Shown here one piece after another: positions 1-64,000 of a stretch of DNA of 64,000 bases; positions within the stretch are counted from its first letter, which is position 1; every line of letters begins with the position of its first letter. A model generated the notes under the pieces. It had not been told where the DNA came from and did not search any database. It was given only the letters and a program-made list of their open reading frames with translations. Position numbers and translations under genes: made by a program. Source of the stretch: a virus (Duplodnaviria; Caudoviricetes); the IMG/VR virus record IMGVR_UViG_3300031760_004705, positions 1 to 64,000 of that record; one strand, given 5' to 3'.

Positions 1-51
1 GTCATCGTAAAGATATTACACTTGAATTTACAATTAATTAACTTAATTTTT

Positions 52-106
52 AATCCCGTTGAGATTTATTTTAAATCTTGACGGGATTTTTTATTTATGG
101 TATAAT
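52..106 (+). promoter_or_regulatory. sigma70/sigmaA promoter (TTGACG 78-83, 17 nt, TGG-TATAAT 101-106) whose -35 lies in the 3' arm of a 17-bp hairpin (52-88), probably an upstream terminator
   Basis: Consensus hexamers with 17-nt spacer and extended -10; inverted repeat aatcccgttgagattta/taaatcttgacgggatt with G-U pairs followed by a T tract. Confidence 0.8.
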
Positions 107-130
107 TATAGTAGAATGAAAGGAGGGCTA

Positions 131-4153: not shown

Positions 4154-4176
4154 ATTATTAAAAGAAAGGAGAATTT

Positions 4177-5720: not shown

Positions 5721-5969
5721 ATGGCTAAACTATTTTCTGATAAAGCTCAGGCAGTTCTCGGTTTCCTCCAGGCTCATGAGGGCGAGGATCTAACTTCTAA
5801 GGACATCGCAGCCGCTCTCGAGATCGAGGGTCGTTCTATTACAGGTGTTCTTAATGGTCTACAGCGCAAGGGTCTTGTTGTTCGTGAGGTTGTAGAGGGC
5901 CAGAAGGATAAGCTCATTCGTCTTACTGCTGATGGTGTTACTGCCGATCCCAATGCAGACAAAGAGTAA
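5721..5969 (+). CDS. Small winged-helix DNA-binding protein (MarR/HTH-like)
   Basis: LTSKDIAAALEIEGRSITGVLNGLQRKGLV helix-turn-helix plus wing; strong SD; codon bias of a highly expressed gene. Confidence 0.7.
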   Translation: MAKLFSDKAQAVLGFLQAHEGEDLTSKDIAAALEIEGRSITGVLNGLQRKGLVVREVVEGQKDKLIRLTADGVTADPNADKE

Positions 5970-5990
5970 TTAGATTATATAAAGAGATAA

Positions 5991-6037
5991 AAGGAGAGCG
6001 GAGGTAGGAGTAATCTTATCTCCGCTATTTTATTATG
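5991..6037 (+). promoter_or_regulatory. 13-bp GNRA-capped hairpin between SD (AAGGAG 5991-96) and ATG 6035
   Basis: agcggaggtagga-gtaa-tcttatctccgct (5997-6026), then 8 nt, then ATG. Confidence 0.55.
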
Positions 6038-7042
6038 AATTGAGATAATCTAATTCCCATTATTATTTTTATTTTATATGCACTTGTTGGATGATTCTGT
6101 TATTGACTTGGTTGTGAAACAGTTCAACCTATTGAAGATATTAATGATAGAATTTTAGAGAGAAGAAAAGAATTAGAAGATGATATTTTCTCTTTAAAAA
6201 ATGAAGAAAAAGAACGTATAGAACGTAATAATATTTTAGATGAAGAGTTTGATCAAATTGGTAAAAAATTAGCTGAAAAAAGAAATGAAAAAATTTTACT
6301 TGATAATGAATTACTTTTAAAACAGCAACAAAAAGAAGAAGTTCAAGATTTTATAGATCAGTCTGAAAAATTAGCTAATGAAAAAGCTGATGCTATATAT
6401 CAAAAAAGACTTTTAGAATTAGAAAAAGACTTTAAAGATTCAAAAGAATATTATACAACAACATTAAACACTTTAACAGAATATATTCAAACTGAAAAAG
6501 AACAATTGGAATCTTTAAAAGCAACACGTGCGGCCGCAATTGAAGCAGCTAAAAGAGAAAAAGAAATTCAAGAAGATAAAGATGATTATTGTCTTGTTCT
6601 TCCAATAGAATATAGGAATGATATAAAAATCTTACGAAGTGTAAGTGAACAAATTGCAAAACCTAGATCTATTTTAATGGCTATCTGACAAGCATATTAT
6701 GCACCTTTAGCTAAAAAGAAATTCCCACAAATATTAAATAAGACCGATGTATGCGGCATCTATAAAATTACAAATCAAGAAACCGGTGAATGTTATATAG
6801 GTCAAGCTGTTGACATACGCCGCAGATGAATGGATCACTGTAAAGCTGGATTGGGTATTGATACGCCGCAAGGTAATCAATTATATGCCGCAATGCTAGA
6901 ATATGGATTAGATTCTTTTTCCTTTGAACTTCTCTTGGAATGTGAATCTAGTCAATTAAATGAAAAAGAAAAATATTTTATTGAATTGTATAATTCAGAT
7001 GCTATTGGATATAATATGAATAAAGGAGTAAATAATGGTTAA
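6035..7042 (+). CDS. Membrane-anchored coiled-coil protein with C-terminal GIY-YIG nuclease domain (335 aa, 5 TGA=Trp)
   Basis: Track ORFs 6506 and 6830 are in frame with ATG 6035; N-terminal hydrophobic LIPIIIFILYALVG, long E/K coiled coil, CGIYKITNQETGECYIGQAVDIRRR[TGA]MDH. Confidence 0.8.
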
Positions 7043-7703
7043 TTTTCAAACAATAGAAGTTGCGGGATTTGCACCTGCAATTATGGGTATGCGTCATCCA
7101 TTAAAGTCTTATGATAAGGCAGATAGTTCTTATGATGAAGAAGGCATCCTTCATATTGGACAAAATGATTATGATTTAGCTAGACGACTTTGTCAAGCAG
7201 GAGGTCCTGAACATGCAAAGTTTCTTCGACAGATTGAAGTATGAGTAAATATTACAGCACCAAGATTTTGGTGGGTAGAAGAAGCAACTTATAAAATCGG
7301 TACAACTGAAAATTCTCAGTCTACAATGCATACTCTAATGCGCGATGGGGTTAAACCAGAAGATATTTATTTTATTTTTGGTGAAGATGAAATTGCTAAT
7401 AATGCTATGCTTACTTATATTCAAGCAATTAATGATCTTATTGACCTTTATAAACAGCTAGAACCTGGTGATATTAAAGAACAATATTTCGAGAAGATTA
7501 AAGCTATGCTTCCTGAAGGTTTTCTCCAGACTCGTATGGTAAGTCTTAATTATCAAGTTCTTCGTACTATGTATAATCAGCGCAAAGGTCATCGTCTCTC
7601 TGGATGGAATACTGATTTTGTAAATTGGGTTAAAACACTTCCAGTTTCTGAGTGGATTACAGGTGATTTTCCTGAGCCGGAAAATGTAGTTGACGGGCAA
7701 TAA
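7035..7703 (+). CDS. ThyX-fold-like phage protein (222 aa, 1 TGA=Trp)
   Basis: Track ORFs 7035 and 7326 join via TGA 7242-44: KFLRQIEV[W]VNITAPRFWWVEEATYKIGT..NSQSTMH, a recurrent phage family; lacks the RHRx7-8S ThyX motif. Confidence 0.6.
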
Positions 7704-10621: not shown

Positions 10622-12133
10622 TTGAATGAACTTAAATATGTAGATACTCCTGCTACAGTTCAAGTGCTTGGATGTATTATTAATAATCTTGATATATTGA
10701 ATGATTCAAGATATGAATTATTTGATGATGATTTTCCAAAAGGGTTTCATAGAACATTATTCTCTGCATTAAGTAATCTTGCGATGCTTGGTACAGAATA
10801 TATTACTCCGCAAACATTAGAAGATTATTTAAGTGATAAACCACAAAGTTATGCAGAGTATAAAGCAGGAGATGGTCCAAGGTTTGTTAAATCATGTATG
10901 GCAAATGCAGATTTTCAAAATTTTGATTATTATTATAATCGAATTAAAAAACTTACATTGATGCAAACATATTGGGATGTAGGATTAGATGTATCTTGGT
11001 TATATGATCCAGACGAATTAGATATATCCAAGAGAGAACAACAGAATAAATATTTTGATAGTTTATCTTTGACTCAAATTGCGGACGCCGTAGATAATCT
11101 AATGCTTAAAGTTAGAGCTGAATATGTAGATCATACTACAGATGAAAGCATGTCAGCTTCCGCAGGTATTGATGAACTATTTGATTCTCTTGGAAAAGAT
11201 CCAGATGTTGGACAACCAATGTATGGTAGTATGATTAATACAATTACACGAGGGATGAGACTTGGAAAATTTTATTTGCGGTCAGCCGCAACTGGTGTAG
11301 GTAAAACAAGAACAATGGTTGCAGATTTTTGTAATTGTGGATGTAATAAAATTTGGAAAGATGGAGAATGGGTAGACAATGGACTTGCATTTCCTTCGTT
11401 CTTTTTAAGTACAGAGCTCGAGCTCGATGAGATACAAACAATGATGGTAGCTTTTCTTGCAAATATTAATGAGGAAAATATTCTTAATAATACGCTTAGT
11501 TTTGAAGAAAGAGAAAGAATAAAAGTTGCAATAGAAATTATTAAAGAATCTCCATTGTATATTGAAGTTATACCAGATTTTAGTCTAAAAGATATTGAAA
11601 ATGCAATTAAAAGAAGTATTAGAATTTATTCTACTCAATACTTTTTTATTGATTATATTCATACTTCAATGAAAATTCTTGAAGAAATTACTAAAAGATC
11701 TGGTGGAGTGAGACTTCGAGAAGATAATATTCTTTTCTTATTAAGTGTAAAATTAAAAGAAATTGCAACAGAATATAATGTATTTATTTTAAGTAGTACG
11801 CAGTTAAATCAAGATTGGAAATCCGCAGATATTCCAGATCAAAATCTTCTTCGTGGTGCAAAGAGTATCGCAGATAAAATTGATACAGGTATGTTATTAT
11901 TAGATGTAACAGAAGAAGATAAAGAAAAATTACAAAGTGTAGTTGGTAACAACGGTATGGGGATGCCGAATGTAAAAATGTCTATTTACAAAAATCGTAG
12001 AGGTTCTTATAATAAATGTTATCTCTGGATGTATGCAGATAAATCTACATGTCGATTTGACGGAGCATTTTGTACAGATTATAATTATGAATTAATTCCA
12101 ATTACAGATACAAGAATCCATATGAGAGTGTAG
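10622..12133 (+). CDS. dnaB: Replicative DnaB-like helicase
   Basis: Walker A SAATGVGKT, STELE, FIDYIH, STQLN, LRGAKSIADKID, YKNRRG. Confidence 0.9.
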   Translation: MNELKYVDTPATVQVLGCIINNLDILNDSRYELFDDDFPKGFHRTLFSALSNLAMLGTEYITPQTLEDYLSDKPQSYAEYKAGDGPRFVKSCMANADFQNFDYYYNRIKKLTLMQTYWDVGLDVSWLYDPDELDISKREQQNKYFDSLSLTQIADAVDNLMLKVRAEYVDHTTDESMSASAGIDELFDSLGKDPDVGQPMYGSMINTITRGMRLGKFYLRSAATGVGKTRTMVADFCNCGCNKIWKDGEWVDNGLAFPSFFLSTELELDEIQTMMVAFLANINEENILNNTLSFEERERIKVAIEIIKESPLYIEVIPDFSLKDIENAIKRSIRIYSTQYFFIDYIHTSMKILEEITKRSGGVRLREDNILFLLSVKLKEIATEYNVFILSSTQLNQDWKSADIPDQNLLRGAKSIADKIDTGMLLLDVTEEDKEKLQSVVGNNGMGMPNVKMSIYKNRRGSYNKCYLWMYADKSTCRFDGAFCTDYNYELIPITDTRIHMRV

Positions 12134-12403: not shown

Positions 12404-13455
12404 TTAAAGAACAAATTGAATTAGAAGATGTATATAATTTGTTAGACTTTTTTGATGCAGAACCTCAAATGTTTAATACTTATATTATCGCAAGAACAAT
12501 TTGTCATGGTGGCGATAGCCATAAACTTTATTATTATGAAAACACTCAATTATTTAAATGTTATAGTGATAGTTGTGGTAGTTTTGATATATTTGAATTA
12601 GTTCAAAAAGTAGAAGATATTAAAGATTTAAATGCCGCAGTATTTTATATAGTAAATTTCTTTAATCTTCAATCTAAAATTGATGAAGTAGATGAAGATT
12701 TTGATTTAGATACATCTAAATATATTGCACAAGTTACTAAATTAGCGCAATTAGATGGATATAAAAAAGATAAAGTTATATTACCAGAATTTCCTATGGA
12801 TATGTTAGATCATTATCCGCAACCAGAAATATTAAATTGGACTAGAGAAGGTATATCTCACGAAGTGTGTAATTATATGGGAATTAAATATGATCCTGTA
12901 AATGGAAATATTTTAATTCCTCATTATGATGAAGATAGTAGATTAGTTGGAATTAGACAACGTACATTAGTCCAAGAGCAAGAAATATATGGTAAATATA
13001 GACCCGCGCGAATACAAGGTAAACTTTGTAACCATCCTCTAGCATTTAATCTTTATGGTTTTAATCAAGCACGGCCGCAGATTAAACAAGCTCAATTAGC
13101 GATTATAGTTGAAGGTGAAAAATCAGTTTTGCAATATATGTCATACTTTGGAACAAAGTCAAATATATGTGTAGCTGTATGCGGCAGTTCAATATCTCAA
13201 TATCAATTTCAACTTCTCTTGGATGCAGGGGTTAAAGAAATTGTATTAGGATTTGATAAAGACTTTCAAGAAATGCGTGGAAAAGAATATGACGATGTTG
13301 TTAAAAAAATTGACAACATTTATAATAAATATAAAAATAGAATTACAATTAGTGTATTATTTGATAAATGGAATTTACTAGGATATAAAAATTCACCACT
13401 AGATTGCGGAAAGGAGGCTTTCTTATATCTATGGAGGAACAGAGTTATGTGTTAA
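12379..13455 (+). CDS. dnaG: DNA primase (DnaG-like); start probably non-canonical ATC 12379/ATA 12382 rather than TTG 12439
   Basis: Zn motif ICHG..LYYY..FKCYSDSC, IPHYD..LVGIRQR, TOPRIM IVEGEKS and LGFDKD; frame open back to TAA 12334 with SD GGAGG at 12368-72. Confidence 0.88.
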   Translation: MISYDKELVKEQIELEDVYNLLDFFDAEPQMFNTYIIARTICHGGDSHKLYYYENTQLFKCYSDSCGSFDIFELVQKVEDIKDLNAAVFYIVNFFNLQSKIDEVDEDFDLDTSKYIAQVTKLAQLDGYKKDKVILPEFPMDMLDHYPQPEILNWTREGISHEVCNYMGIKYDPVNGNILIPHYDEDSRLVGIRQRTLVQEQEIYGKYRPARIQGKLCNHPLAFNLYGFNQARPQIKQAQLAIIVEGEKSVLQYMSYFGTKSNICVAVCGSSISQYQFQLLLDAGVKEIVLGFDKDFQEMRGKEYDDVVKKIDNIYNKYKNRITISVLFDKWNLLGYKNSPLDCGKEAFLYLWRNRVMC

Positions 13456-25170: not shown

Positions 25171-26724
25171 TTTTCAAGGATTATTCTTAGAATTAAGAGA
25201 CTTTTGTAATCCTTTAACTGAATTAGGACCAAAATAACCATCAGCACCATCTGGGCCAACACTAAACTTATGTTTAATTAAAAATTCTTGAATCTTCTTA
25301 GAAGTATCTGGTCCCCAATATCCATCTACATCTGCACCGACTTTCTTTTGAATTGCTTTCACTAAAGCAGATCCAGTGCGTTCTCATGTAACAGATACAA
25401 TACCTTTAAAATATTCTTGATTACCTTTAAGCTGACCAGAGATAACACCATCTACAGGTGTTCCTAAAGATTTCTGTCAAGCTTTGATTGTTTCATATCC
25501 ACCAATACCATCTACTGCAAGTTTAGTAGAGGTTGTAGTCTTATTAGTGGTGGTAGAACTAGAAGTAGTTGTTTTAGCTCCGCCCGTAGTAGCACCTTGA
25601 TAACGAAGAATGCAATCCCATCCATGACTATAGGTATAAATATTCTTTACATTAGTCTCATTACCAGACTGGTCACCGGTTTGGCCACCAGTTGCGCGAC
25701 CACGTTCATCAATAGATGCCTGAGCAATTTTAGCGTTTCAACCATTTCCAGAAATAACTGCGGCAGTATGGTAATTGTCATTTAATAGAATATCACCGGG
25801 CTGTGCTTTAGATAAATCTGCGGGAATACGTTTCCATCCTCGAGCTGTAAGATTACTAGACATATTACCAGTATAACTTGCGCTTCCAGTATCAAATCCA
25901 GCCTTCTTTAAAGCTCAAATTACAAGGGAAGAACAATCACATTCTCCACCATCATAAATATTTTGACGCTGATATTGGTCATATCCAAGAGATCATACAG
26001 CACATGCAGTATACATTCATTCACAAAACTTAGTAAGTTTATCTGAATCTTTAACTCTCTGTTCATTCTTATCATTCTCTAATTTATTTTGTTTAGCTTT
26101 AATACGAGAAGGATAATTAATAACACATCAATTAAAATCTGTACAACCAGATACGTCATCATAATATAAAGCACCATCAGTTAAACGTTTAGTGCCTTGT
26201 TGTCACATACCAATGTCACCCGCGGCAGTTGGTCAATCACGCTGCCATCAAGCAATTCAATTAGCATATTCATCTAATTCATCTTTGTTAACATTATTTA
26301 ATCAAGCAGAACCCTGTATATAGAGTCCCGCATAATATCCAGCTTTAATAAGAGTATCGCAGAAAGTTTTAATTATTGCAGTTAGTGTGCTCTTGGATAA
26401 TTTAAATTGACGAGGATCTTCTACATCCATATAGATGGGCATATCAAAATCATGTCCTTTAAGTAATCCAATAATATGCTCTGCATCTTTCTTTGCTTCA
26501 GCTACAGAGGTGCATACAGTATAATAATACGCTCCAACATGTAGACCTGCGGCTTTAGCTTTTTTGTAATTAGTTTCGTATTGAGAATCGGTATAACGAC
26601 CTAATTTAGTTTCATTACCACCACATTTAACAATTACGCCTCATAGATTATGTTTTTTTATCCATAAGGCGTAATTTACATTACCGTCTCAATGAGAAAC
26701 ATCAATAACGGCTTTACGTTCCAT
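25168..26724 (-). CDS. Three-domain endolysin: GH25 muramidase + Cys/His amidase/peptidase + peptidoglycan-binding repeats (518 aa, about 15 TGA=Trp)
   Basis: IDVSH[W]DG..GLHVGAYYY..IYMDVE; LGYDQ..GECDCSSLVI[W]..GDILLNDNYHTA; VDGIGG..[W]QKSLGTPVDG, DGYWGPDT; single frame to TAA 25168. Confidence 0.9.
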
Positions 26725-26726
26725 TT

Positions 26727-27083
26727 TTACTCCTTTGTGAAATGTTTTCCTTGAAGGAAGTCATCTGTATCATCTACAGAATCGCCATATTGAATTTCTG
26801 GAATAGCCATTGCATCTGCATATGTTGCAGGAAGGCCAATCATATTCTTAAATGCTTCGTACATACCAGTAGAAGCAAGACCACTAATCATACCAGTAAC
26901 GATAGTTGGTAAGTCTAAAGTTCCAAAACTTCAAACAGCAGCTGCAACTCCAAGAATTGCAGAAATAATAGGAATAAAACTATTTAAAATTTTATTGTGT
27001 AAAGTATGTAAGGTATATCCAATACCTAAGCACGCAATTAAAATAATTGGTGATATATAATTAGTTATAGTTGAGAGGTCCAT
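26727..27083 (-). CDS. Holin (118 aa, TGA=Trp at codon 51)
   Basis: Three hydrophobic segments, FIPIISAILGVAAAV[W]..GMISGLASTGMYEAFKN, directly upstream of the lysin. Confidence 0.85.
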
Positions 27084-27086
27084 AAA

Positions 27087-27284
27087 CTACTCCTCTTCTG
27101 GTAAATCTTCTTCCTCTTCTACGGGAGTGATATATCCTTCTTCTTCAAGCTCTAGAAGCATCTGTGCACGCTGAGTGTCAGAAAGTTTAGGATAAGAATC
27201 AATTACATCAACAGCATTTTCACCATGCTTGATTCGAAGAATAACAGCTTTTTTAATAATCTTATAAGCAACAGCAGTTACCAT
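27087..27284 (-). CDS. Small tail-region protein (65 aa)
   Basis: AYKIIKKAVILRIKHGE..IDSYPKLS; SD. Confidence 0.65.
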   Translation of the reverse strand: MVTAVAYKIIKKAVILRIKHGENAVDVIDSYPKLSDTQRAQMLLELEEEGYITPVEEEEDLPEEE

Positions 27285-27304
27285 AATTATTACCTACCTT
27301 TCAT

Positions 27305-27814
27305 TTATAATGGAATTGATACAGTTGGATTTTGTAATATGTAAGCAGAAGCTCTAAAATAATAATTACTAGAAGTACTAGTCATAGGCTCTGATGTCTG
27401 TCAGTATAAATTAGGCGTTAATGGAGTTGAATCAGTATATGCAGTTCCTCCATGTAAATATGCTCTATCTGTTGTTTTACCTGTTGATATATCTATTTCA
27501 AAAATAGGAGCTACTATATCTGTACCAGTAGCTATCGTGACTGTTTGATTTGCAGTTGTTGGTTGGCTAATCTTTAATATAATAAAAAACATACCTAAAC
27601 AATTTCATCTTGCAAAACGAATTAAAGAAGGAGTAATACCAGAAGAAAAATTAAAAAATGTATTTGTTATACCAGTATCACTATTTTCATTAAAAAGAAC
27701 AAAATCATTTTTATCTTGTATGTTATTTAATTTATCTCGAGCAATAGCATCACATATATCATACGTAGTATCCCCTACTTGAATTTGAGAAATTTTATTT
27801 GTATTTTCAGCCAT
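27305..27814 (-). CDS. Docking-motif tail protein (169 aa, 2 TGA=Trp)
   Basis: KISQIQVGDTTYDICDAIAR; track ORFs 27605 and 27401 join. Confidence 0.75.
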
Positions 27815-27815
27815 T

Positions 27816-27872
27816 TTATTCAATCCTTCCTATGTATGGCGGCATCGTTCCATATATATTTAACATAGGCAT
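27816..27872 (-). CDS. Possible 18-aa mini-ORF MPMLNIYGTMPPYIGRIE
   Basis: Strong SD AAAGGAG upstream; TAA ends just before the next ATG. Confidence 0.3.
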   Translation of the reverse strand: MPMLNIYGTMPPYIGRIE

Positions 27873-27939
27873 TATTTTCTCCTTTTCTTTCTTTAGTTTT
27901 AATCTAAATCAAATTCTTTATTCTTAATGTTGAAATAAA

Positions 27940-28500
27940 TTAAATTTCTTCTTCGGCTCCACCTAAGAGATCGGCCATAACAAGTAGAATATCATCAAGA
28001 GTTTCTTGATTTTCTGCAACTCTATCTTCAATATCACTACCAGCGAGTTCTGCTACGACTTCAAATAAATCATTAGTGTCAGATTCTATTGTATTAAGTC
28101 GTTCAGGACCTTTTGCTAAAAAGACATTATCAGCTAATTCTTTTTCTGTATAAAGAATATAGCGAAGAATAATCTCTTCTTCTTCATATGCTTCAACTTT
28201 AGGTTGATCAATTACATATCGAATAGAAGCACTTTTTATTTGAATAGAAGGATCTTCTTTACTAGGGAGATATTTGAAAGCACCCGTTGTTTCATTGATT
28301 ATTTTAATGCGAGGATCATTTTCTTTTAAGAAAAGAGTTTCTCCTGTATTTAATTCAAGATAACTAACAAAATAATGACCTTTTTCAGGAACCATTTCAT
28401 GATAATGAATAATTTTTTCTTTTTCTAAGTGACCCAAATTTAAATCGGGATCAAAAATTTCATTTCCTTCATTATCTAAAATTCGATATTGATTATCCAT
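27940..28500 (-). CDS. Tail-associated protein X2 (possible fibre-assembly chaperone), paralog of 30101-30628
   Basis: ILDNEGNEIFDPDLNLGHL..YTEKELAD..DILLVMADLLGGAEE. Confidence 0.7.
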   Translation of the reverse strand: MDNQYRILDNEGNEIFDPDLNLGHLEKEKIIHYHEMVPEKGHYFVSYLELNTGETLFLKENDPRIKIINETTGAFKYLPSKEDPSIQIKSASIRYVIDQPKVEAYEEEEIILRYILYTEKELADNVFLAKGPERLNTIESDTNDLFEVVAELAGSDIEDRVAENQETLDDILLVMADLLGGAEEEI

Positions 28501-28533
28501 TGGAACTATTAACTCCTCTCTTTTGCTTTAATA

Positions 28534-29082
28534 TTAATCATCAGAAATATCAACTACTCTAGCAGTTGTCTTTCATAAAAGCATTCTAGCTCTTATTTGA
28601 AATGAATTAGGAGTTATTGTAGTAGATCTTAAATTATAAAAAGATAACACACATCCTCCACCAGTGGATCCTGATTCTGATGCATTGGCCATTTCTGTTA
28701 ATACTAAATCTGTAGGTGTACCTTCAATACCTACCACTCCTAATTGATGATATCCCTTTTTTAAATATTCGTCTTGAATATTTTTTGTATGATCCGAACT
28801 TAAAGTTCTTAAAGTAATACTGCTTGTTGTTTTACTAGGAAAATGAGTAGAACTAGAATAATTACAAACTCTAACTCATTTAAAAAGAGTCTGATTTACG
28901 GTACCTGTAAGATTGCCTATAGTAGCAGCATTAGTAGTTGCTGTATCAAGAGCTTCTGTTGCTTTGTCAAAAGTATCTGATATTGCCTCATTTAATTGTA
29001 CCATACTTGCACGAGCTCCTGCATCTTGTATATCGTAGGTTGTATTACCCACTTTAATTTGTGAAATCGTTGGATTAGCCAT
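28534..29082 (-). CDS. Docking-motif tail protein (182 aa, 2 TGA=Trp)
   Basis: TISQIKVGNTTYDIQDAGAR, short coiled coil, beta-rich C-terminus. Confidence 0.75.
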
Positions 29083-29085
29083 AAA

Positions 29086-30081
29086 TTAATAACCTCCTTC
29101 AATTAATATTAATTTTGTAGTGCCAGAAACGATACTACCATCATTAGTTGAATTAATTACTAATTTATAACTTGAAATATCTGGAGTATCAACTGTAGTA
29201 TCAAGATTAGTTATACTATTATTATTTTTATCATATCTATATAATTTTTCAATACGATCAATTACATGATTATGAGGAATGGTAAAATTAAATCTATGTA
29301 AATCAGCATGTTTAAAATATAATACATGCGCACTTGAAGTATCTTCTAAATAATTTTCTAAATCACTACTATAAGCAATAATACTGCCTTCTCTTGGAGG
29401 ATTATCTCCTATAATTAGTTGATCTTTTAAATAGGATACTTCAATGATTTGTATAGGATCTAATCTAGAATCTTCATTACCATCAATTAAATAATCTGAA
29501 TTTTTAACTTGATTTTGTAAAAATTCTAGTCTAGATGGACACCCTGTTTGAATTGCATTACTATATTGTGCCACGTCTTCTGTTGCATCAAGTAAATTTT
29601 TAAGATAAGTTTTTCAAAAAGATTCTACTAATCTTGCAACAGAACTTATTTTAGATGTGGTAATTATTTGATTCCAATTATATTGATATCACTTTGATCA
29701 AGCAAGATCTTTATTTATTGCATAAATTATATAAGTAACTCCTGCATCATTATATTCTAATGTATGTCATATTTGAATAACAAGATTATTATTTAATGTT
29801 ATATATGTAGTATATTCTTCAAAATTTGAACTTAATTTATAACCAGTATAATCTTCTACATGAGTTCCACCCATATCTAGCAAATATTCTCCCCTATCTT
29901 CCTCTACGGGAATTATATTACTATTTATAGTATACATAGGATTATTATTTTCATCAACAAGTAAATCTAAATCTAATAAAGCATCATTATTTTCACTTGG
30001 AGACGTAATTCCAAACCAAGTAGGAATATGTAATCTTGGGAGGGGTAAATCCCCTAATTGTTCATATGGAGTTGCTGTCAT
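29086..30081 (-). CDS. Hypothetical tail-region protein (331 aa, 4 TGA=Trp)
   Basis: Track ORFs 29767 and 29086 share a frame and join via TGA. Confidence 0.7.
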
Positions 30082-30100
30082 TTTTACCCCTCTCAATTAT

Positions 30101-30628: not shown

Positions 30629-30647
30629 TTATAGCTCCTTTCCTTAA

Positions 30648-31148: not shown

Positions 31149-31162
31149 TTTACTTCTCCTTT

Positions 31163-31633: not shown

Positions 31634-31647
31634 AATTCATCTCCTTT

Positions 31648-32118: not shown

Positions 32119-32127
32119 TTTAACTCC

Positions 32128-32904: not shown

Positions 32905-32917
32905 TTAATCTCACCAC

Positions 32918-33490: not shown

Positions 33491-33505
33491 ATGTACTACT
33501 CCTTT

Positions 33506-34159
33506 CTATTGGAAAAATGTAATCGTCTCATTAGCATAAGTTGCTAGGTCATAATAAGATGGAGTTCAGTCTGTAGGTTTATTGCCTTTTTCTAATTTTG
33601 CATGAGCAAAACGGCAAGTTAAACCAGTACTATTTCCAGTCACGCACATGCCAATTAAAAATTCTCAATCAAGTTTAGCACTACTGCTTGGTTGGAATGT
33701 GAAACGATATTGTGTTCAAGTATTAGCTGGAATAGAAACATTATTTTGTGAAGTTCATCCAGTATATCCAGCTGTTGCAGACCCATTTCTTCAACCAGTA
33801 TGCATATGTGCAGTTGTTGCAAGGCTAGACTTTAATCAGCAAGTAAAAGTATAAATCTCTCCAGCTTCAATTGCCCCAGGTTTGGAACATCAAGAACATC
33901 CTCTATTTCCTGTACCTGTATCATTATTAAGAACTAAAGAATTACTACTATTATCATATTCCTCTAAAGTAAATAATGAAATGGGCGAATTATATCCAGC
34001 AGTCTGTCCAAAAGTAAATGCAGCAGACATTGTAGTTGCTGGAAGTACATAATTATTAGTAGCACCTAAGAGATTTTCATTTCCAAAAGTAGAAACTTTA
34101 TCTTGTAAATCATAAGTGACATTATTTAGTCCTTTAATCTGTGAAATTAAATCTGCCAT
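33506..34159 (-). CDS. Docking motif + CBM-like domain (217 aa, about 7 TGA=Trp)
   Basis: ISQIKGLNNVTYDLQD..NENLL..YTFTC[W]LK..[W]TQYRFTF..AKLEKGNKPTD[W]TP. Confidence 0.7.
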
Positions 34160-34167
34160 AATGTCAC

Positions 34168-34788
34168 CTACTCACTATATAATTCAATTGTTTCGTTACC
34201 AATAAATTTTGCAATATCTTCTGGCGCAGGACTTCAATCAGTTGGTTTATTACCTTTTTCTACTTTAACTTTTGCCATTCAAATTTCATCTGCGGTAGTT
34301 GTATTGCTACCAATCATTAAATTAAATCCTACACAATTTGCAGGAGCAGTGTATACAGGTGAAACATAATGGGCAGAAGTAGTAGTTAAAGCTGGAGAAA
34401 ATCAAACCTGAGAAATAATACTACCAGAAGAATTCATTCAATGTATTCCCGCACAACATTTTTGGCCAGCCGTTTTAGCATATGCATCAAAAGATACTAT
34501 AATTTGATCTCCTTCTGCAACATCCCCATATCCTCCACGGTGAACAGAATTTTGAGAATAGCCTTGATATTGAGTTGTGGTTGAAACAATGTGCATATAA
34601 TTAATTCCATTAATTGTTACAACTTCTCTAGTAGTAGGACTTCCTCAATTTACTCAAGGTGCAGGTGGAGTAGCACTTAAAAATCTAGTATTATAAACAA
34701 GATTGCGGCCGCCCCATATAGAATAATCGTCTCTGATATTGTAATTAACATTATCAGAGGTGGCTTTTATCTGAGAAATAACTGCCAT
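34168..34788 (-). CDS. Docking motif + CBM-like domain (206 aa, about 6 TGA=Trp)
   Basis: ISQIKATSDNVNYNIRD..WGGRNLVYN..VSFDAYA..VKVEKGNKPTD[W]SPAPED. Confidence 0.7.
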
Positions 34789-34806
34789 TTAAAAGCCACC
34801 ACCTTT

Positions 34807-37443
34807 CTATGCAGGAACACTAGTTGTTGCAGATGTTCCAGTAAATGTCGAAGTATAAGTCTTAGGTACTGCAATATTACCAGTAACAAGTCGTACTGCT
34901 GTACCTGTAAAGGTAGGAGCACTAACACTACCAGCAGGTGTATAACTGCCAGTAGAAGTTATCGTTGCAGCTGTACCAGTAAATGCAGGTGCAGAGTTCG
35001 TTCCAGCAGGAGTATAATCTTGAAGGACAAGTCGTTTACCTGTGCCCGTAAATGTAGGCTGAGAAACTGTTCCGGCTGGAGTATATGATCCGGTTGAAGT
35101 AATGGTTGCAGCTGTACCTGTAAATGTAGGCTGCGTAGATTGATAAGCTGCATCTCCAGTTTTAACGGTTGTATTAGATCCCTTAGTAGGTAGTGTACCA
35201 GCAGACCAACCAGAAGCAGAACCGTTAGTTGCAGTTGTAAATGACATTACTTCATTTGAAACTGAAGTTCCTGTAATAACTGTTTGATTTGTAACTGTTA
35301 AAGTAGGTAATGTTCCAACAGCAGTAATACTATTAACAGTTGTAGTTGTGCCCGCAGTTTTAACTGAAATAGTTGGGGTACTAACTGTACCAGCTGGGGT
35401 ATAAGATTTACTAACTGAAATCGTTGCAGCCGTACCACTAAATGTTGGTTGTGATACTGTACCTGCAGGAGTATATGTTGCAGTACCGCTACTTGCAGGA
35501 CTAACTGTTAAACCAGTAGCTTTTGTACCTGTAAATGTAGGTGCAGCAACACTACCTGCTGGAGTATATGATTTGCTAACTGAAATTGTAGCGGCCGTAC
35601 CTGTAAATGTTGGTGCACTATTCGTACCCGCAGGGGTATATGTGGTAGTTCCACTAGAGGCCGCACTAACTGTAGCAGTTTTATTTTCAGTTGTAGCAGT
35701 ACTAGTTGCAACCGTACCAGTTGCAGTTACAGTATGCTTATGATTTCCCTTAGCAGCAGTAGATGCCGTATTTCCAAGAGCAAGAGAAGCACTAATTTCT
35801 ACATACCCAGCAGTTGATCCACCATAACGATAAGTTTTATTTGTAGATACATCTACATAAATTTTATCTGCGGCAGCTGCAATTTCAGTAGTATGTGCAG
35901 ACTCTGCATAAAATTTATTGTTATATAAATATCCTTCTTTAATTTCATCAATTGAGCCTGGAAGGACTGATGTAGGAATTGTACCAGTTAATTTACTTGC
36001 ATTTAATGAACTAGATGAAGTTAAGAATCCTGTCACTGTATGAGTATGAGTTCCTGTTGCAGTAATATGGCCCTGAGCATCATATGTTACATAAGGTACT
36101 GCTAAAGTAGAACCACTAGTTGCAGAAGATGTACCTGCGGTTCCCGCAGTTACAGCATTAGTATGTTGAATAACTGTTCCATTTAATTTAATGCCAGTAT
36201 TAGCAGTATATGTTGTATTATTATCAGGTACGGTAACTGTACCAAGACTTTCACCATTTTTATTTTTTAAAGTAATAGTATGATCTGAAATACTAAAACT
36301 AGCTGCATAAGAAGTCTTAATATTATTACCAGATTCATCCTGAGTTGCTTTAGTCGCGGTAGATGCATTTCCATTTAAGGGACCATTAAATTGAGTAGAA
36401 GTAACTTGCGCAGGAAAACTAGCATTTTGAGAATTATCGTAGGAATATAAATGACCCTCTTTTGCCATATTAGAAGGAGTTATCCAGCCAACGCCGCCGA
36501 ATCCCATAATTCTTTGAACTGTTAAGCCATTATAATTAGTATTTCCACCATTTGCCTTAAAAATAAATCTTATACGGCCATATTGAGAACCAGCTGTATT
36601 TCCATAAGTGGCAATACCACTTGTATTAATTATATTATATCCACTTCAACCAGAGATTCCTATATCTTCTGTTTCATTTACAAAAGTTGTAGGAGTAGAT
36701 TGTAGTGCTTTTTGAATTTGTACGGTACAAGAACTACTGCCATTTGTTGAAATATAAATAACAAATTTATTTAAAACAGTATAAACAGAAGCGGCTCCTG
36801 TATCAATTGTTATTCTTAATTGATATTTATTTGTATTTGCAGTTGCTTTATTTGTGTTATCTGCTTTTCCAATTAAAAAACTTCCGCCTGTTCCAAAAAG
36901 AGTAGCATTAACGTTTGCTCCAGCTCCATAATCAGTTCAAGTTGATCCTCCGTCACGACTATATTCAATTGTTACAGAAGAGCCTTTTATAAAAGCTAAT
37001 CTATTAGCTCCTAAATTTGGAACCATTGCTGCATCAATAGGGCCATACGATGCCGCAAAATTTTTACCTCCTCAAGTTAAATAAGCTTCTGGATAACCAG
37101 TTAAAGTATGAGTATGAGTTCCAGATTTTGTGATATGTCCTTGTGAATCATAAGTAACATAAGGAATATCTATTGTCCCATTTACACTTGAGGTAGCACT
37201 TGATGCTCCTGCTGTCGCGGCAGTAACATTATTTGAATGGTTAAAAGTTGTACCCGAAAGGCTTAAACCACTACCAGCACTATATGTAGTATTATTATCT
37301 TGTTGTGTAAAGGTAAAAGTTGTACCATCTCGTCTAGTTGCTGTAAAGGTGGTACCATTTCTTGTAATATTAGCTATTGCACTTCCATCTTTAATATTAT
37401 AGCTACTATTATTAGGAAGTGTAATTTTTGAAATATCTGACAT
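34807..37443 (-). CDS. Long tail fibre with docking motif, HxH motifs and nested YTPAGT/PTFTGT repeats (878 aa, 3 TGA=Trp)
   Basis: Track ORFs 37072 and 34807 join in frame; ISKITLPNNSSYNIKD, duplicated PYVTYDxQGHITxxGTHTHTxTG, Thr/Gly/Ala repeats. Confidence 0.85.
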
Positions 37444-37490
37444 TAATATTATCACCCACCTTTAGTGTAATCACCTAATTTGTTTCATAT

Positions 37491-37532
37491 AAAATAAAAA
37501 GGGCAACTCTGTAATTATACAAAGTTGCCCTT
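37491..37532 (-). terminator. Intrinsic terminator (minus strand)
   Basis: gggcaactttgta-taat-tacagagttgccc then tttttatttt. Confidence 0.8.
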
Positions 37533-37543
37533 GAAAGCATTTA

Positions 37544-39181
37544 TTAACTATAAGTAACAGTAGCGTCAGTATTGTTTTGAGTAAGTGTAACGTTAATTGT
37601 TCCTTCAGGAGTAAAGGTTGTATCTCCACTAGTTGCTTTACTAACTGTAGTAGTTTTATTAGCAGTAGTTGCGGTAGAAGTAGCAACCGTACCAGCAGGA
37701 GTAAAGTTTCCACTAGCAGAAATTGATCCATCAGTAAATGTTGAAGTATAAGTCTTAGGTACTGCGATATTTCCAGTAACAAGACGCACTCCGGTACCAG
37801 AGAATGTAGGCTGAGACACGGTACCTTTAGGAGTACCTTTGACAGTAACAGTTGCTGAAGTGCCAGTAAAGCTGGGTGCAGTATTTGTACCAGCAGGAGT
37901 ATAAGTAACCTCACCACTTGAAGCTGCACTAACAGTAGTAGTCTTATTAGTATTGGTAAGACCAATAGTACCAGCAGGTGTATAACTTCCACTCGCGGAA
38001 ACTGCACCATTAGAGAATGTTGGCTGAGATACAGATCCTGCAGGGGTATAATCTTGTAAAACAAGACGCTTACCCGTACCTGTAAAGGTAGGTGCGCTCG
38101 CCGTAATAGTAACATCTGTAGTTGTAATTGAATTAGTTTTAGTTGCACCAATTTGATATAAACTCAATGTTTCACCTGAGACACTATAATAAGTAATTGC
38201 ATTCGCAGGAGCAGTCGCGCCAGGTGCAGCCGCAGCTAAAGCATTGACAACATTTACTGCTGTTGGATTTTTAATAGTAGTCGCAGAACCTCCACTTGTT
38301 ACTGAAATTGTAGGTGCGGTAACAGTACCTTGTGGAGTATATGTAGCGGTTCCGCTTGATGCAGGACTAACAGTTAAACCTGTAGCTTTTGTACCCGTAA
38401 AGGTAGGCTTAGAAACTGTACCTGTTGCAGTACCAGTAACACTAACTGTTTCAGCAGTACCAGTAAAACTTGCAGAAGTAGGAACTGGAATATCTCCAGT
38501 TACTAAACGTACACCCGTACCAGTAAATGTAGGTGCGGCAACCGTACCGGCAGGCTTGAATGAACCTGAAGAAGTAAGCTCTGATCCAGTAAATGTTGGT
38601 TGAGTTACTGTTCCCGTAGGCGTATATGTTGCCGTGCCACTTGAGGCAGGAGATACAGTAGCAGTTTTATTTTCAGTTGTAGCTGTTGTAGTAGAAACAG
38701 TACCACTTGCGGTACCACTAACTTCAACAGTACCTTCTGTTCCAGTAAAAGTAGAAGTATAAGTTGCGGGTACTGGGATATTTCCTGTCACTAAACGAAC
38801 AGCCGTACCAGTAAATGTTTTAGCACTAATACTGGCTTTATCATATTTAACATTAACCGTATTCTTAGTAGCTAAACTACCATAGCTATTAAGAGCATCA
38901 AGTAAATGCCATTTTTCACCATCATATAAGAATTCTTTAGTTGATGTATCTCCCGCAGTTGTTGGAGCAAAAATTAAATCGCCTTTAACAGGAGTATATG
39001 CACTACCATTTACTTGTATAGAAGATGTAGTAGCTCCATCTGTTAAAGCTGTAGTAGTAACACCAACTAATTTAACACCATTATCTATTGCTTCAAGAGT
39101 TTCAATTTGACCTCGAGCTCAAGAGTCTTTAATATTATAAGTATTACCATTAGGTAATGTAATCTTTGAAATATCTGCCAT
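37544..39181 (-). CDS. Tail fibre with docking motif and nested repeats (545 aa, 2 TGA=Trp)
   Basis: ISKITLPNGNTYNIKDS[W]AR; same repeat modules as 34807-37443. Confidence 0.85.
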
Positions 39182-60100: not shown

Positions 60101-63100
60101 ATATATACCTAAATCATCCGGAGCTATATCTGTTTCTAATAATTGCCGACCTTTAATAGAAATATAGGGATCTGTTCCAGAATGCAATAAAATTCCAGAA
60201 TCTTTATAATCTATATCTTTTTCATGATGACCGCTATAAGGATCTGAACCAATTTGAGTTATTTTTCCTGTTCTAATTTCTGGAACATAATCATTAGAAT
60301 AACGAGGTCCAATCTCACCACTCTGAGTATAATAAAGACTTCGATGCCCTAATCTTCATCCACCTATTTTACTTACTCCACCTGGTCTTAATTCTATTCT
60401 ACCTTCATTGTAATCATCATTTTTTAATCCTATATAATTACCTTTTTCATCTGTTTGAATAGAATTGCCATTAGGTAATCCAAAATCTGCATTGCCAGTT
60501 TTAGCATCTAAGAAAATAGATTGGATACCATAAGAATATCCAAATAAACCTATTTGATTTTCTTCAGAAGAACTGCCAGTATAAGTATTAGTTTTACCCA
60601 TTAAAATACCGGTAAAACGATTATTAGAATCTTTTTCTCCCGCACCTACTTGCGGAGCAAGTATTGCACCACGTTCATCATCAATACTAATACTATTACC
60701 ATCTCATGCATTCACAGAATCTAAACCAAAAGTATTTAATGTCATATTAATAGGAGCATATACAGTTGCATATAATTTTATTTCTTCATCTGAATCAGGA
60801 ATATAAATTTTTGCTTCTATTCGATTATTTGTTACAGATCCATCATATACATCATTAGGTAAAACATAGATCATAGCTTCATTTGTATCATCATTTAAAA
60901 TTTGAATATTAGCATCAATAATCGCTTCTTCATATGGAGAATAAACAGATTTAAAATAAGCTTCAGGAGTTAATGCAACATTTGCTTTTGTATAAATTGT
61001 CTTGTAAAAATAATCTTGTTCTCCTATTTCAGATTTTTCAAGAGCTACATATCCATATTCATTATCTTGTTCATTAACAATAACATATTTATATAAATTA
61101 TATAGTTCATTCTCTTTTTCTGACTCTGTAGTTAATTGATAACGCGATTCTTCTCAAATTGGTAAAGGATAATATTTTTCAATAAGTTGAGATTCACCTT
61201 GTTCATTTTCTACTTGTGTAGTAATTTTATAAAAATAATTTTTATAAACAGCTTGAGAATCTCATCATTCATTCACATTTTTAGAAAATCATCAACATTC
61301 GTTTAAAGGTTTATCTTCACGTTCTTTATCTCTAATATCATTTTCTGTAAGGTCCGTTCTATGAGGAAGTTCTTCTTCAATAAATTTATTAATAGCTTCT
61401 TTTTGTAAAATCCGTAATCTTTCTTCTTTGAATTTAGCTAATAATAATTCATTTTGAGATTGAACCTTTGCTATATAATTGTCATATAGTCCAGTTCCTC
61501 CAGTTATTACTTTATTACCTTCTTCATCAAGTATTTCATTACCTTGTTCATCAACAGCTAAAGTACAATATAACTTTAAATTTTCATCTTTTTCTTTTTC
61601 ATATACTTGTCTACGCTGCTCTTCTTCTTTTTCTAATGTACTTTTTCTTTGAGATATTAATTTAGAAAAAGTATTCTTAGTATTTTTTTCTAATCCAAGA
61701 GTAAAACTAGGTTCTAATTCAAAACATTCTTGAATAATATTAGAATTATTTGATTTATTTACATCTAATCCTCCACGAGCTTCCCAATAGATGATAGAAT
61801 TTTCAGGAAGGTTCGTTAATTTTAACCCTTGATTATGATTAAAAATAGGATTGCGGCCGTCCGCATTATAAACAACATCGTTTAAATATGTTTTTTTATC
61901 AATTGCAATACGTTGCATTGGTAATAATTCATTGACTAAAGTTGAATTATTTTCATATTCAATAATAGGTAAACTAAAGAAACTGTAGTAAGTTTGTTCT
62001 GATTCTTCTTCTGTAATAGCATCTTTATTTTTTATTAAAATTTCTGATCTAATGTTCTGAAGTAATAAACTTCTAGTATCATTATGATAATTAGGATTTC
62101 ATTTAATTTCATTAGCAGTTATTTCAAAATATTTGCCCAGTTCATTTCCTCTTGAGTTTCCTGCTAAAATTCATCTTGGGTATCCCGAGGCAAAATTTAC
62201 TGAATCAATTTCTTCACCTTTTTGATAAACATGAGCTTTTAATACAGAATTTTTATTTTCAGCATTTGTAACAATTGTTTGTTTATTTTTTAGTACATCA
62301 ATATCACCATCTGAATCTGCAACATTAAACATTGCTTGAGTTTCAGTTGTATTTTCATCTATTGGAACATTTTTTTGTACATATAATGTTAGTGGTTGTT
62401 CATGAAGAACAAAATATTTATCATTTCCATTATAACTAATTTTAGAAATCATATCTGTACCATTAGTACCATTACCACCTATTTTATTAAAATAAAAATT
62501 AGTATCAGCATAAAGATCTATATCGTTAAAATTAGCATGGCAAGTAATTTGATTATTTTGCGCATCAGGATTATATAATTTTTCAATATCAAAAGTGCAA
62601 TCTGGTCCTTTTAATAATTGCTCTTGTTGTGTTGCGGGATTTAATACTAGTCCATCTGGAGGAATAATTAAAGAATTTTCTAAATTAAAAATTCATTCAA
62701 AATTAATATTTGAACTAGAAACAGAAAAAGATAATCCGGTTGGGCCTAAAATTTTTGCATGTAAAGGTTTAATTTCTAAAGGATCTTTTGTTTTAGTAAG
62801 AGTTGGAGCATTTCCATATTCATCATATTGAAATACCTGATCTCCATTTTCAATTATAATTCTATAATTTGAAGAAGCTCCCATTTTTAAATTTGTAATT
62901 TCAATAGAATCTGTACCGATATCATAATAATTAGCAGTAGTTTCTGAAATAAAGATTTTTTGAACTGTACACTCAACAGTAAAACCTGAGCTAGATAAAG
63001 AAACAGGGTATTGAATTCTTGTTGCTCTATTAGGAATCTTTGTTTCAACTAATTCATTTGTAGTTCTATCCAAATATCACATTTTAATTTTAGAAACAAT

Positions 63101-64000
63101 ATTATCTTTTAAAATATTAGAAGTGTTTTTTGAAAAAGCATCTTCTAAAAATAAAACAGATGAATTAGCACTATCTGCTATGCTTCATTGATATTTATAT
63201 AATGGAGTTTCTATACTATCATTATATCCATATTCTTGATAATTGTCTAAGTTTTCATTATCTTCAACAGAAAGAGAGTTCTCTTGAATTAAACAACTAA
63301 TTGTAGGGCTTCCTTCTGAAAAAGTAAATTCAGTGCCTAAATCAGATTCTAATTTTATTTTTGTTGAAACTGCATTATTATAAACAGTAAATGTTGTTGA
63401 TAAAGTAACTGTTTCATCAGAAGTTTTATATAAAGCTATACATTTATATAAATTTTTGTATGCTCAATTTTCATTACCGGTAGTTTGAAAAATAAATCTA
63501 CTAGTATTTTTTAATCGTTTCCATCCTATTCCCGCATAATGATAATAATCTGGATGACTAGCATTAATTACTTGTGAACTTTGTTTTAATCAAATATATT
63601 CAACATTTGCATTAGAAGTTAATTCTTCTATTTGATTTCTATAAACGTGAGCATTAAATGTAACTTTATCATCTGCAGATAAACTAGATAAAACTCCAGT
63701 ACTATTCTCTGCACATTCAACCTTTAAAGAAAAATTGTTAGATTCCGCATCAGATTCTTTCAATAAAAATAATTGAATGTTTTGACAAAATATATCATAT
63801 CCAGTTCCTTCATCTTTAGGAGCGTCACTAGGTGGCCATAATTGTTCTTGTTCTGCATCTTGATTAAATCCATCTTTAAAAAATAAAATATTTTTTATAT
63901 ATTTAAAACGAGAAAATTCTAATTTTTGAGATGGAATTATATATTGACTATTTCAATTCTTAAATGCTAAAGGATTACCCATCATTGAATCTGAAGTTAA
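57104..64000 (-). CDS. Giant tail protein (central fibre/spike-like), 5' end outside the window, more than 2290 aa with many TGA=Trp
   Basis: Nine track ORFs from 57362 to 63073 share one frame ending at TAA 57104; IGLFGYSYGIQSIFLDAKTGNADFG..GRIELRPGG; C-terminal AHGHTH. Confidence 0.8.
57610..57740 (-). repeat. About 6 x 21-bp repeat encoding (K/E)GNI(T/V)T(K/N) heptads
   Basis: KGNITTKEGNIVTKKGNITTNKGNITTKEGDIATNKGNITV. Confidence 0.85.

Follow-up and report, generated by a model that had tools for sequence, protein, structure and literature searches.

Why should an AT-rich phage genome carry one short, G+C-rich word far more often than chance allows? The question is raised by a 64,000-bp stretch of viral DNA (the window), which is the first 64 kb of the 88,423-bp IMG/VR virus record IMGVR_UViG_3300031760_004705 (Caudoviricetes). 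The record comes from a gut/rumen phage and is a 59%-complete fragment by CheckV; the whole phage is roughly 125-150 kb and reads TGA as Trp. The GC content of the window is 32.1%. An earlier note on this DNA, made from the sequence alone, had estimated about 90 occurrences of GCSGC (GCCGC or GCGGC), about 50 of them in the first 25 kb and about 40 beyond, where 10-15 were expected. Exact counting gave 91 (33 GCCGC and 58 GCGGC), with 51 up to 25 kb and 40 beyond, and the expectation for the window was 13.7 from base composition and 14.0 from a first-order Markov model, so the estimates of the note were accurate. Below, we trace the excess to the pentamer TGCGG/CCGCA and consider a DNA primase of the phage as its putative reader.

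We compared the counts with a codon-preserving null in which synonymous codons were permuted within each gene, keeping the amino acids and the codon usage of each gene, with TGA taken as Trp. In the coding sequence of the window, GCSGC was observed 87 times against 24.9 ± 4.2 in the shuffles, the maximum in 300 shuffles being 36 (z-score 14.8). A shuffle of this kind was the check on which the earlier note had staked its claim, and it left the enrichment standing. TGCGG/CCGCA occurred 133 times against 43.1 (z 14.5) and TGCGGC/GCCGCA 62 times against 10.3 (z 17.1). For the whole 88-kb record, the corresponding values were 121 against 39 for GCSGC, 202 against 66 for TGCGG/CCGCA and 88 against 16 for TGCGGC/GCCGCA. 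Permuting whole codons lowered the expectations still further. An artefact of codon usage or amino acid content was therefore rejected, as the excess survives the shuffles and is found in all frames and on both strands.

The extent of the word was defined by its flanks. Among the 230 copies of GCGG in the window, the preceding base was T in 142 and the next base was C in 91. Composition predicted 29 copies of TGCGG/CCGCA, where 142 were found, and 4.7 of TGCGGC/GCCGCA, where 64 were found. Relative to the shuffle null, GCGGC lacking the leading T was only ~1.4-fold up, TGCGG lacking the trailing C was ~2.3-fold up and TGCCGC was enriched 2.8-fold. Together, these extensions and enrichments describe a word TGCSG(C) in which G is much favoured over C at S in this genome. 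Its information is concentrated in the core TGCGG/CCGCA; C is the favoured base following TGCGG, and the best form is TGCGGC. The excess of GCSGC in the note is thus upheld, but the core is corrected to TGCGG/CCGCA because the leading T is informative. Other pentamers made only of G and C had 3-46 copies in the window, and the high ones all contain GCGG or CGGC, which indicates a specific word. General G+C clustering was rejected, other G/C-only pentamers being at or below expectation.

The 142 sites are dispersed over the whole window (1-64000, both strands; 70 TGCGG and 72 CCGCA on the plus strand), and the mean spacing in the whole record is ~430 bp. Examples of TGCGGC lie at positions 192, 1780, 2936, 3083, 3668 and 5225 and of GCCGCA at 1247, 2355, 3189, 3421, 6533 and 6819; a back-to-back palindrome, TGCGGCCGCA, lies at 6529. 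Both orientations occur on both arms, as had been noted earlier: TGCGG on the plus and minus strands numbered 35 and 39 in 1-24.5 kb and 35 and 33 beyond. Strand counts were even in the window (70/72) and in two relatives, G001 (328/326) and G003 (200/189), and no strand polarity of TGCGG was found in any of the three. Spacing analysis, also suggested in the note, gave gaps that are near exponential (Poisson-like). No preferred pair distance or regular spacing of the sites was found, and there were no iteron-like clusters, dense clusters or enrichment at the genome ends.

Synonymous codon choice was then compared inside and outside the context of the word. The note had remarked that the motif forces the rare Arg codon CGG. 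This is true locally, since CGG makes up 32% of Arg codons after nTG and 2.4% elsewhere, but not as the main source of the sites, since only 11 of the 87 coding GCSGC arise in this way; the whole record has 38 CGG codons. Most sites run through Ala codons, as T-GCG-G at 72 of 101 sites on the coding strand and as nCC-GCA at 54 of 101 on the other strand (hyphens mark codon boundaries), and the synonymous position in these two is the identical position of the motif. The coding and non-coding strands carry 100 and 102 copies of TGCGG. Among Pro codons, CCG reaches 39% before CA and 4.4% elsewhere; among Arg codons, CGC reaches 68% between C and A and 7% elsewhere; and among Cys codons, TGC reaches 55% before GG and 21% elsewhere. 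Likewise, GCC is used at 34% before GCA and 5% elsewhere, and GCG at 21% in the context T_G and about 5% otherwise. Both flanks are required, GCG not being generally preferred before G or after T. The synonymous odds ratios favouring the word were about 5-28 over three frames and both strands. Because synonymous choice favours the word in every frame and on both strands, the effect acts on DNA and not on translation. Outside open reading frames (ORFs) of at least 50 amino acids, a fraction that may include small genes and tRNAs, the count of TGCGG/CCGCA over six genomes was 146 where 25 were expected, and almost no other word of equal composition ranked higher. Collectively, these results identify a weak, persistent pressure at the DNA level, ~3-fold over the codon null and 5-8-fold over base composition.

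Relatives were collected by a portal protein search of IMG/VR, which gave 41 and then 353 related loci. In most of ~90 portal-region loci, with portal identities of 48-100%, CCGCA/TGCGG was the top or a leading 5-mer by zero-order expectation. Six genomes, the present record and five relatives that are whole or nearly whole, were shuffled, and in all six the word was the top 5-mer, with z-scores of 17-30 and symmetric strands. Observed counts and shuffle means were 202 and 66 in the present record, 346 and 114 in G003 and 296 and 96 in G006C1, all TGA-recoded, and 604 and 193 in G001, 586 and 181 in G014 (complete) and 422 and 121 in G013 (96% complete), which use the standard code. A link to TGA recoding was rejected, the three standard-code genomes being equally enriched. 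The preferred flanking base differs by subclade (GCCGCA, CCCGCA, CCGCAA or CCGCAC). The cultured relatives VPE25, EF1 and Phass-1 showed no TGCGG excess. Some words were depleted among the relatives, likely through restriction avoidance: TCCGG/CCGGA stood at 0.10-0.11 of shuffle expectation in G001 and G014, TGCAG at 0.5 in G014 and G013, and TGCGGC at 0.2-0.3 of composition expectation in G011 and G012, two genomes in which the word and the primase zinc finger are both lost.

The bacterial side was examined through co-binning. A near relative, the 104.7-kb contig C1 (G006C1), sits in a metagenome-assembled genome (MAG) labelled 'uncultured Clostridium sp.', and its NrdD is 98% identical. This putative host, MAG G006 (1.3 Mb, 30% GC, standard code), is assigned by co-binning only, and related phage contigs also occur in other MAGs of the same order. 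In 277 kb of its bacterial contigs the word occurred 84 times against about 92 expected (0.96-fold), with a strand skew explained by composition. Host mimicry finds no support, this putative host MAG having no excess. Word density was 2.3 per kb in the phage and 0.30 per kb in the putative host, a 7.7-fold difference. Three further MAG-binned contigs, putatively phage by their gene content, share an NrdD cassette at 75-77% identity. Two of these, L049 and L050, which also share a tail-fibre N-terminal peptide, have no TGCGG excess, and the third, L048, with a distant replication module, has only a 2.3-fold excess. With no excess in the putative host and little or none in the NrdD-sharing contigs, the word belongs to this phage lineage.

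Searches for other host signals were negative. Relatives of the endolysin in bacterial genomes gave no host pointer, and when 401 genomes of the putative host order were searched at the DNA level, the hits were confined to further co-binned phage contigs and short, weak matches, none of them convincing as a CRISPR spacer. The remaining contigs of MAG G006 (C2-C16, loci L062-L076) belong to an order of small genomes (0.9-2.2 Mb) that encodes AddA. The chromosome of this MAG has a very strong compositional asymmetry between strands, and AGAGC/AAGAGC is 4-5-fold over-represented in it, with a strand skew explained by composition.

Comparison with the relatives revealed how individual sites evolve. 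Where the amino acids are identical, the whole word is retained at 60% of sites in G003 and 47% in G001. G at four-fold degenerate sites is conserved at 62% inside and 21% outside the word in G003, and at 36% and 6% in G001. Retention at saturating divergence (36-47%) is close to the context probability of the word (21-34%), so single sites turn over while the propensity to form them is maintained. Gains and losses in the context T-GC[N]-G were polarised with G003 as the outgroup. Gains were seen at 8 of 38 positions, compared with 99 of 4114 other four-fold sites (Fisher p 4e-6), a ~9-fold difference, and losses at 4 of 20, compared with 52 of 136, which is ~2-fold lower and not significant. 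The gains arose from A, T and C with an ordinary spectrum. The earlier view of a selected, non-polar, genome-wide mark therefore gains support: the excess is shuffle-proof, strand-symmetric, present in every frame and kept in relatives, and gains arise at ~9 times the control rate.

The density of the word was also compared across base compositions. Among 22 genomes with an intact primase finger and a GC content of 31-50%, the density was 1.9-4.7 per kb (coefficient of variation (CV) 0.24), while chance gave 0.39-1.94 per kb (CV 0.48), and the enrichment dropped with rising GC (rho -0.61). In G011 and G012, the density was 1.0-1.1 per kb, which is under chance. This pattern fits a site that is frequent by chance in the GC-richer relatives and held by selection in the AT-rich ones.

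The word is realised at 202 of the 1,712 positions that the proteins permit, and unevenly among genes. The realised fraction is about 0.20 in the replication genes, 0.28 in the portal gene, 0.50 in the terminase fragment, 0.08 in the giant ORFs and 0.03 in the major capsid gene, and about 0.03 in the short tail-fibre genes at 27.3-34.2 kb. A motif-poor block of short tail-fibre-like genes (26549-32586, minus strand) has two sites only (30266 and 32586) in 6 kb. Most genes of the short tail-fibre block (27305-39181) had no homologue in the seven relatives compared; few homologues and few sites fit a recent exchange of this module. The gene at 37544-39181 begins with a 26-amino-acid N-terminal peptide that is 73-77% identical in the otherwise unrelated contigs L049 and L050.

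A lineage in which the word has changed offers a clue to what might read it. G011 and G012 are complete genomes with 57-58% portal identity and a GC content of 46-47%, and CCGCA occurred in them 141 times against 159 and 134 times against 161 in the shuffles, so there is no excess. Their top word is CGGCA/TGCCG, with 511 copies against 260 and 552 against 276, also symmetric. A further subclade (L110-L125) enriches both TGCGGC and TGCCGC. A lineage-specific switch by one base suggests that a protein reads the word, and the primase is the only clade-wide reader of short asymmetric words that we could name as a candidate. The primase gene (12439-13455, plus strand) encodes 338 amino acids with a CHC2 zinc finger and a Pfam Toprim domain. 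The finger is N-terminal and DnaG-type, with ligands Cys22, His23, Cys41 and Cys46 (about nt 12502-12576); among proteins of solved structure the best match is Aquifex DnaG 2au3 (E 5.8e-6), in which the zinc ligands align. DnaG and the T7 primase recognise sites of 3-5 nt through their zinc-binding domain (PMC12839067, PMC2910064), and the site of M. tuberculosis DnaG is reported as 5'-GC(G/C)-3' (as cited in PMC12839067), which is the core of TGCSG. If the primase reads the word, a change in the word should be accompanied by a change in the finger. The primase of G011 and G012 is full-length, with Ser-His ... Asp ... Gly replacing the three Cys, while all 22 examined TGCGG-enriched genomes keep the four zinc ligands. 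No alternative Prim-Pol was found in the finger-less genomes or in the others examined. A small insertion in the finger is common to the two-variant subclade and to G426, G002 and G005, the latter three without raised TGCCG. In G005 (G005:C1:78631-80702, loci L209 and L210) the primase gene is in two pieces ~1 kb apart, with an in-frame TAG in the first, which may reflect an intron, intein or homing-endonuclease insertion, or TAG recoding.

Phage T7 served as a control under the same null. The T7 primase pentamers are known sites (PMC12839067, PMC2910064), and [GT][GT]GTC occurred 170 times against 122 (z 5.6) on the main lagging-strand template; on the other strand, GACCC occurred 51 times against 35 and GACCA 55 times against 37.7.

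From these comparisons of sequence we tentatively propose, at somewhat less than an even chance, that the DnaG-type primase encoded by the phage preferentially initiates at this word. The CHC2 zinc finger would read a G+C-rich site on the single-stranded template. This site might be 5'-CCGCA-3', in which case the 3' A would be cryptic and the primer would begin with pppGCGG, or it might lie within 5'-TGCSG-3' as its GC(G/C) core. Chance would supply few such sites in an AT-rich genome, and selection for enough good priming sites on whichever strand is the lagging-strand template would draw synonymous positions towards the word. This would require forks moving in both directions, for example in recombination-dependent replication, an assumption that counts as a cost of the proposal.

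Further observations weigh against it. The correlation between zinc finger and word represents one evolutionary event, G011 and G012 being close relatives that have diverged in many proteins; in an ortholog divergence profile aimed at a protein that diverges specifically in this pair, several proteins drop, and the ligase is absent there. The word showed no polarity to any replication direction, whereas the T7 sites are stronger on the main lagging-strand template. With z 17-30 and the top rank among words, its excess also far outstrips that of the T7 sites (z about 4-6). In VPE25, whose genome is 29% GC and whose homologous primase keeps its finger intact, no pentamer is comparable, the best being CATGG with z 4.9. 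The 6-kb tail-fibre block and the major capsid gene are nearly without sites, and TGCCG remains 2-fold enriched in G011 and G012, whose zinc finger is gone. Published work reports that a minor fraction of primase sites is used and that the size of T7 Okazaki fragments did not follow the number of sites (PMC12839067), which weakens the case for selection on density. Finally, a primase reading leaves a second word unaccounted for.

This second word, TCCAAGAG/CTCTTGGA, occurs from 523 to 61701 of the window on both strands (17 + 17 copies). The record has 21 + 21 copies against about 1.6 expected from composition and 4 from the codon shuffle (z 21), and they occupy every frame and either orientation. 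In G003, G001, G014 and G013 the enrichment of TCCAAGAG is 13-35-fold; in G011 and G012 it is only about 3-fold, and CAAGAG by itself reaches 4-fold there. In 40 kb of the cultured Enterococcus phage EF1, CCCAAGAG has 10 copies against 0.3 expected. A literature search for TGCGG, CCGCA or CCAAGAG found nothing relevant. Taken broadly, a primase whose template specificity sculpts a whole genome, keeping a pentamer at 2-5 per kb through synonymous sites over 31-50% GC and losing or switching it when the finger decays, or else a pair of words (TGCSG and TCCAAGAG) that phage proteins read directly as a non-covalent code marking the DNA as self, is a novelty that we regard as possible, with the balance of probability leaning against it.

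Other explanations were weighed against the same observations. The word might be a double-stranded site bound by another phage protein, as a non-covalent self-mark (sparing phage DNA, for example, from a nuclease that recycles host DNA) or as a genome organiser, with a small benefit per site. Recognition without regard to orientation fits the strand symmetry, the lack of polarity and the Poisson-like spacing, and a self-mark fits the 7.7-fold higher density in the phage than in the putative host and the salvage set of guanylate kinase, NrdD/NrdG and dUTPase, which is typical of phages that recycle host DNA. The second symmetric word behaves alike and is also altered in G011 and G012, and density is partly buffered against GC content. 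Yet no candidate reader tracks the motif. The winged-helix protein encoded at 5721, named in the note as a possible binder, is conserved in all eight genomes compared (tblastn identity 34-95%), including two without the motif. The phage-protein binding sites of the note are possible in general but have no specific support, as the protein that does track the word is the primase with its zinc finger, a reader of single-stranded DNA and not a packaging or organising protein. In addition, iteron-like clusters are absent, kilobases of the genome are unmarked, no pair of nuclease and protector was identified and the loss of the zinc finger in the motif-less lineage is not predicted. We consider this explanation unlikely, and we are rather more sceptical of one without any function, in which a lineage-specific bias of mutation or repair (biased mismatch correction, a drive resembling gene conversion, or a hot spot) turns neighbouring words into TGCGG. 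Such a bias would produce the observed turnover, with retention of 36-47% near the context probability of 21-34%, and, as in amelioration, site-rich resident core genes beside apparently recently exchanged tail-fibre genes with nearly none. Gains are 9-fold up while losses are only ~2-fold lower (not significant), where simple symmetric selection predicts otherwise. However, no Vsr and no clade-wide methyltransferase was found in the records searched; the transition neighbour expected from deamination repair is not depleted (TGCAG/CTGCA 1.02 in the present record). The depleted neighbour is a transversion (TGCTG 0.71), no neighbour is consistently depleted across genomes, and the gains from A, T and C show an ordinary spectrum. 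A context effect that needs all five bases, acts on two strands and shows odds ratios of 5-28 is not known from any enzyme system lacking a site-specific protein, and highly expressed genes resist it, which makes the effect weak relative to codon selection.

By analogy with Chi, the word could instead be recognised by host AddAB or a phage helicase-nuclease, so that ends would be protected and recombination-dependent replication promoted. The word is a G+C-rich 5-mer that shares its GCGG core with the Chi site of B. subtilis, AGCGG; the putative host order encodes AddA (four of five genomes pass the TIGR02785 cut-off); RuvC, RecJ and a Sak4-like recombinase are encoded by the phage; and the word changes in a lineage of very different GC, which probably has another host. 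We nevertheless find a Chi-like role improbable, as the word is at 0.96-fold in the putative host with a compositional strand skew, is non-polar in the phage, and is not enriched in L049 and L050, whose NrdD cassette and tail-fibre adaptor peptides possibly point to shared hosts; the host is itself assigned by co-binning only. The least credible proposal is a covalent tag, with the word as the target of a DNA-modifying enzyme of phage or host, and we give it very little weight. The word is short, asymmetric, CpG-containing and even on both strands, like the sites of Type IIS or orphan methyltransferases, and a C5-methyltransferase (PF00145) occurs in two relatives. This family was not found in the present record, 59% complete as it is, and was seen in only 2 of 10 whole records of relatives, being absent from the complete G014 and the 96%-complete G013, both strongly enriched. 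PF01555 (N4/N6) was not found in the present record or in any of five relatives' records, and PF02384 and PF02086 were each found in 0 of 5 relatives' records, the present record not having been searched for these two. Vsr (PF03852) was found in 0 of 5 relatives' records, three of them at least 90% complete, again with the present record not searched, and TGT/DpdA (PF01702) was found neither in the present record nor in four relatives' records. The putative host has no excess, and there is no evident reason for a modification target to be enriched. The self-methylation tag suggested earlier is thus not borne out by the methyltransferase search, which found no clade-wide enzyme.

Over-represented words with a function are known in bacteria, among them Chi, uptake sequences and KOPS. 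The uptake sequences of competent bacteria (the USS of Haemophilus and the DUS of Neisseria) are 9-12 bp long and are driven by biased uptake. They resemble the present word in their dispersed copies, which number in the thousands, lie in both orientations and within genes, and keep their density under a weak drive while sites turn over; they differ in being longer and in belonging to competent bacteria, whereas phages lack an uptake step. HIP1 (GCGATCGC) of cyanobacteria and CCWGG of E. coli (Dcm and Vsr very-short-patch repair) are likewise hyper-abundant short words found in all frames, and their excess is ascribed to biased repair tied to methyltransferases. Unlike the present word, they are palindromic and have cognate methyltransferases and Vsr; the present word is asymmetric, no clade-wide enzyme was found in the searched records, and the transition neighbour that such repair predicts is not depleted. 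The stoperators of Cluster A mycobacteriophages, which are 13-14 bp long, number about 25-35 per genome and are oriented with transcription, are also asymmetric, specific to a phage lineage, scattered partly within genes and read by a phage protein. In contrast, the present word has 5-6 bp, hundreds of copies and no orientation. Chi sites are short, G+C-rich, synonymously kept and weak per site, as in E. coli (GCTGGTGG), B. subtilis (AGCGG) and Caulobacter (GCGGTGGT; PMC5443536), and the recognition probability of Chi is about 0.2 (PMC5443536). They are polar and over-represented in the host chromosome, whereas the present word is non-polar and not enriched in the putative host. The sites of primases (5'-(G/T)2GTC-3' for T7 gp4, trinucleotides for DnaG, and the M. 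tuberculosis DnaG site) share with the present word an asymmetric 3-5-nt sequence and, on the proposed reading, recognition by a zinc domain on single-stranded DNA and a reader encoded by the phage, and the T7 sites are enriched over the same synonymous-shuffle null on both strands. The present word differs in being far stronger (top word, z 17-30) and non-polar, and its reader is proposed from sequence. A limited literature search turned up no primase site described as shaping the synonymous positions of an entire genome.

The gene content of the record places the primase within a replication module. The plus-strand arm (59-25121; Pfam and annotation) carries genes for replication and nucleotide metabolism, encoding GyrB, GyrA, an ATP-dependent ligase, a Sak4-like AAA_24 protein, DnaB, the Toprim primase, RecJ, DnaE, guanylate kinase, NrdD/NrdG, dUTPase and RuvC. 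The DnaB-type replicative helicase (10622-12133, plus strand; Pfam DnaB_C and DnaB) shares a gene block with the primase, and the order DnaB, primase, RecJ is identical in the annotation of Enterococcus phage VPE25. This phage (L211, 1-50000) shares the replication module of DnaB, YorJ-like primase, RecJ, DnaE, guanylate kinase and gyrase, and its palindrome CCATGG occurs 45 times against 14 under the codon shuffle (z 8). YorJ-like primases as a wider family are represented in 195 records of cultured phages. The winged-helix protein considered above is an 82-amino-acid MarR-type protein (5721-5969, plus strand; Pfam MarR_2, 7.7e-10). The minus-strand arm carries the endolysin gene (GH25 and Amidase_5), tail-fibre-like genes, two giant ORFs and the portal and terminase genes.

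TGA is a sense codon in this record, since ORFs of at least 150 amino acids cover 55% of it under code 11 and 92% with TGA read through. In the minus-strand arm TGA stands in place of TGG, with 228 TGA and 151 TGG in the record as a whole, and sense TGA probably encodes Trp. Most sense TGA codons fall within the minus-strand arm of lysis and structural genes (25168-64000, continuing to 88423), and the replication arm (59-25121) uses TGG. No tRNA was found in the 88-kb fragment; the relative G003 has a cluster of 14 tRNAs, including one with the anticodon UCA, and the close relatives G001, G014 and G013 use an essentially standard code. Within the otherwise nearly TGA-free replication arm, a GIY-YIG ORF at 6035-7042 has five in-frame TGA and no TGG, and is probably a mobile homing endonuclease. 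The adjoining ORF at 7035-7703 encodes a divergent ThyX-like protein under the Pfam cut-off (E 7e-5; phrog_6721, an unannotated family), which is present in this record and in G003, G006C1, G011 and G012 and not in G001, G014 and G013. In genome size, recoding pattern and habitat, the phage resembles the 'Agate' phages (Borges et al., bioRxiv 10.1101/2021.08.26.457843).

A strong word that is specific to a phage lineage and symmetric on both strands, without an enzyme of covalent modification, is unusual. Its count separates the phage lineage from the putative host about 8-fold and may therefore aid binning, as several bacterial MAGs contain contigs of related phages. If something other than the primase reads it, the two words would point to an unknown system of DNA recognition. 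If the primase does read the word, the specificity of replication initiation would shape codon choice in a large, uncultured group of phages from gut and rumen, and the specificity of a primase could be read from genome statistics.

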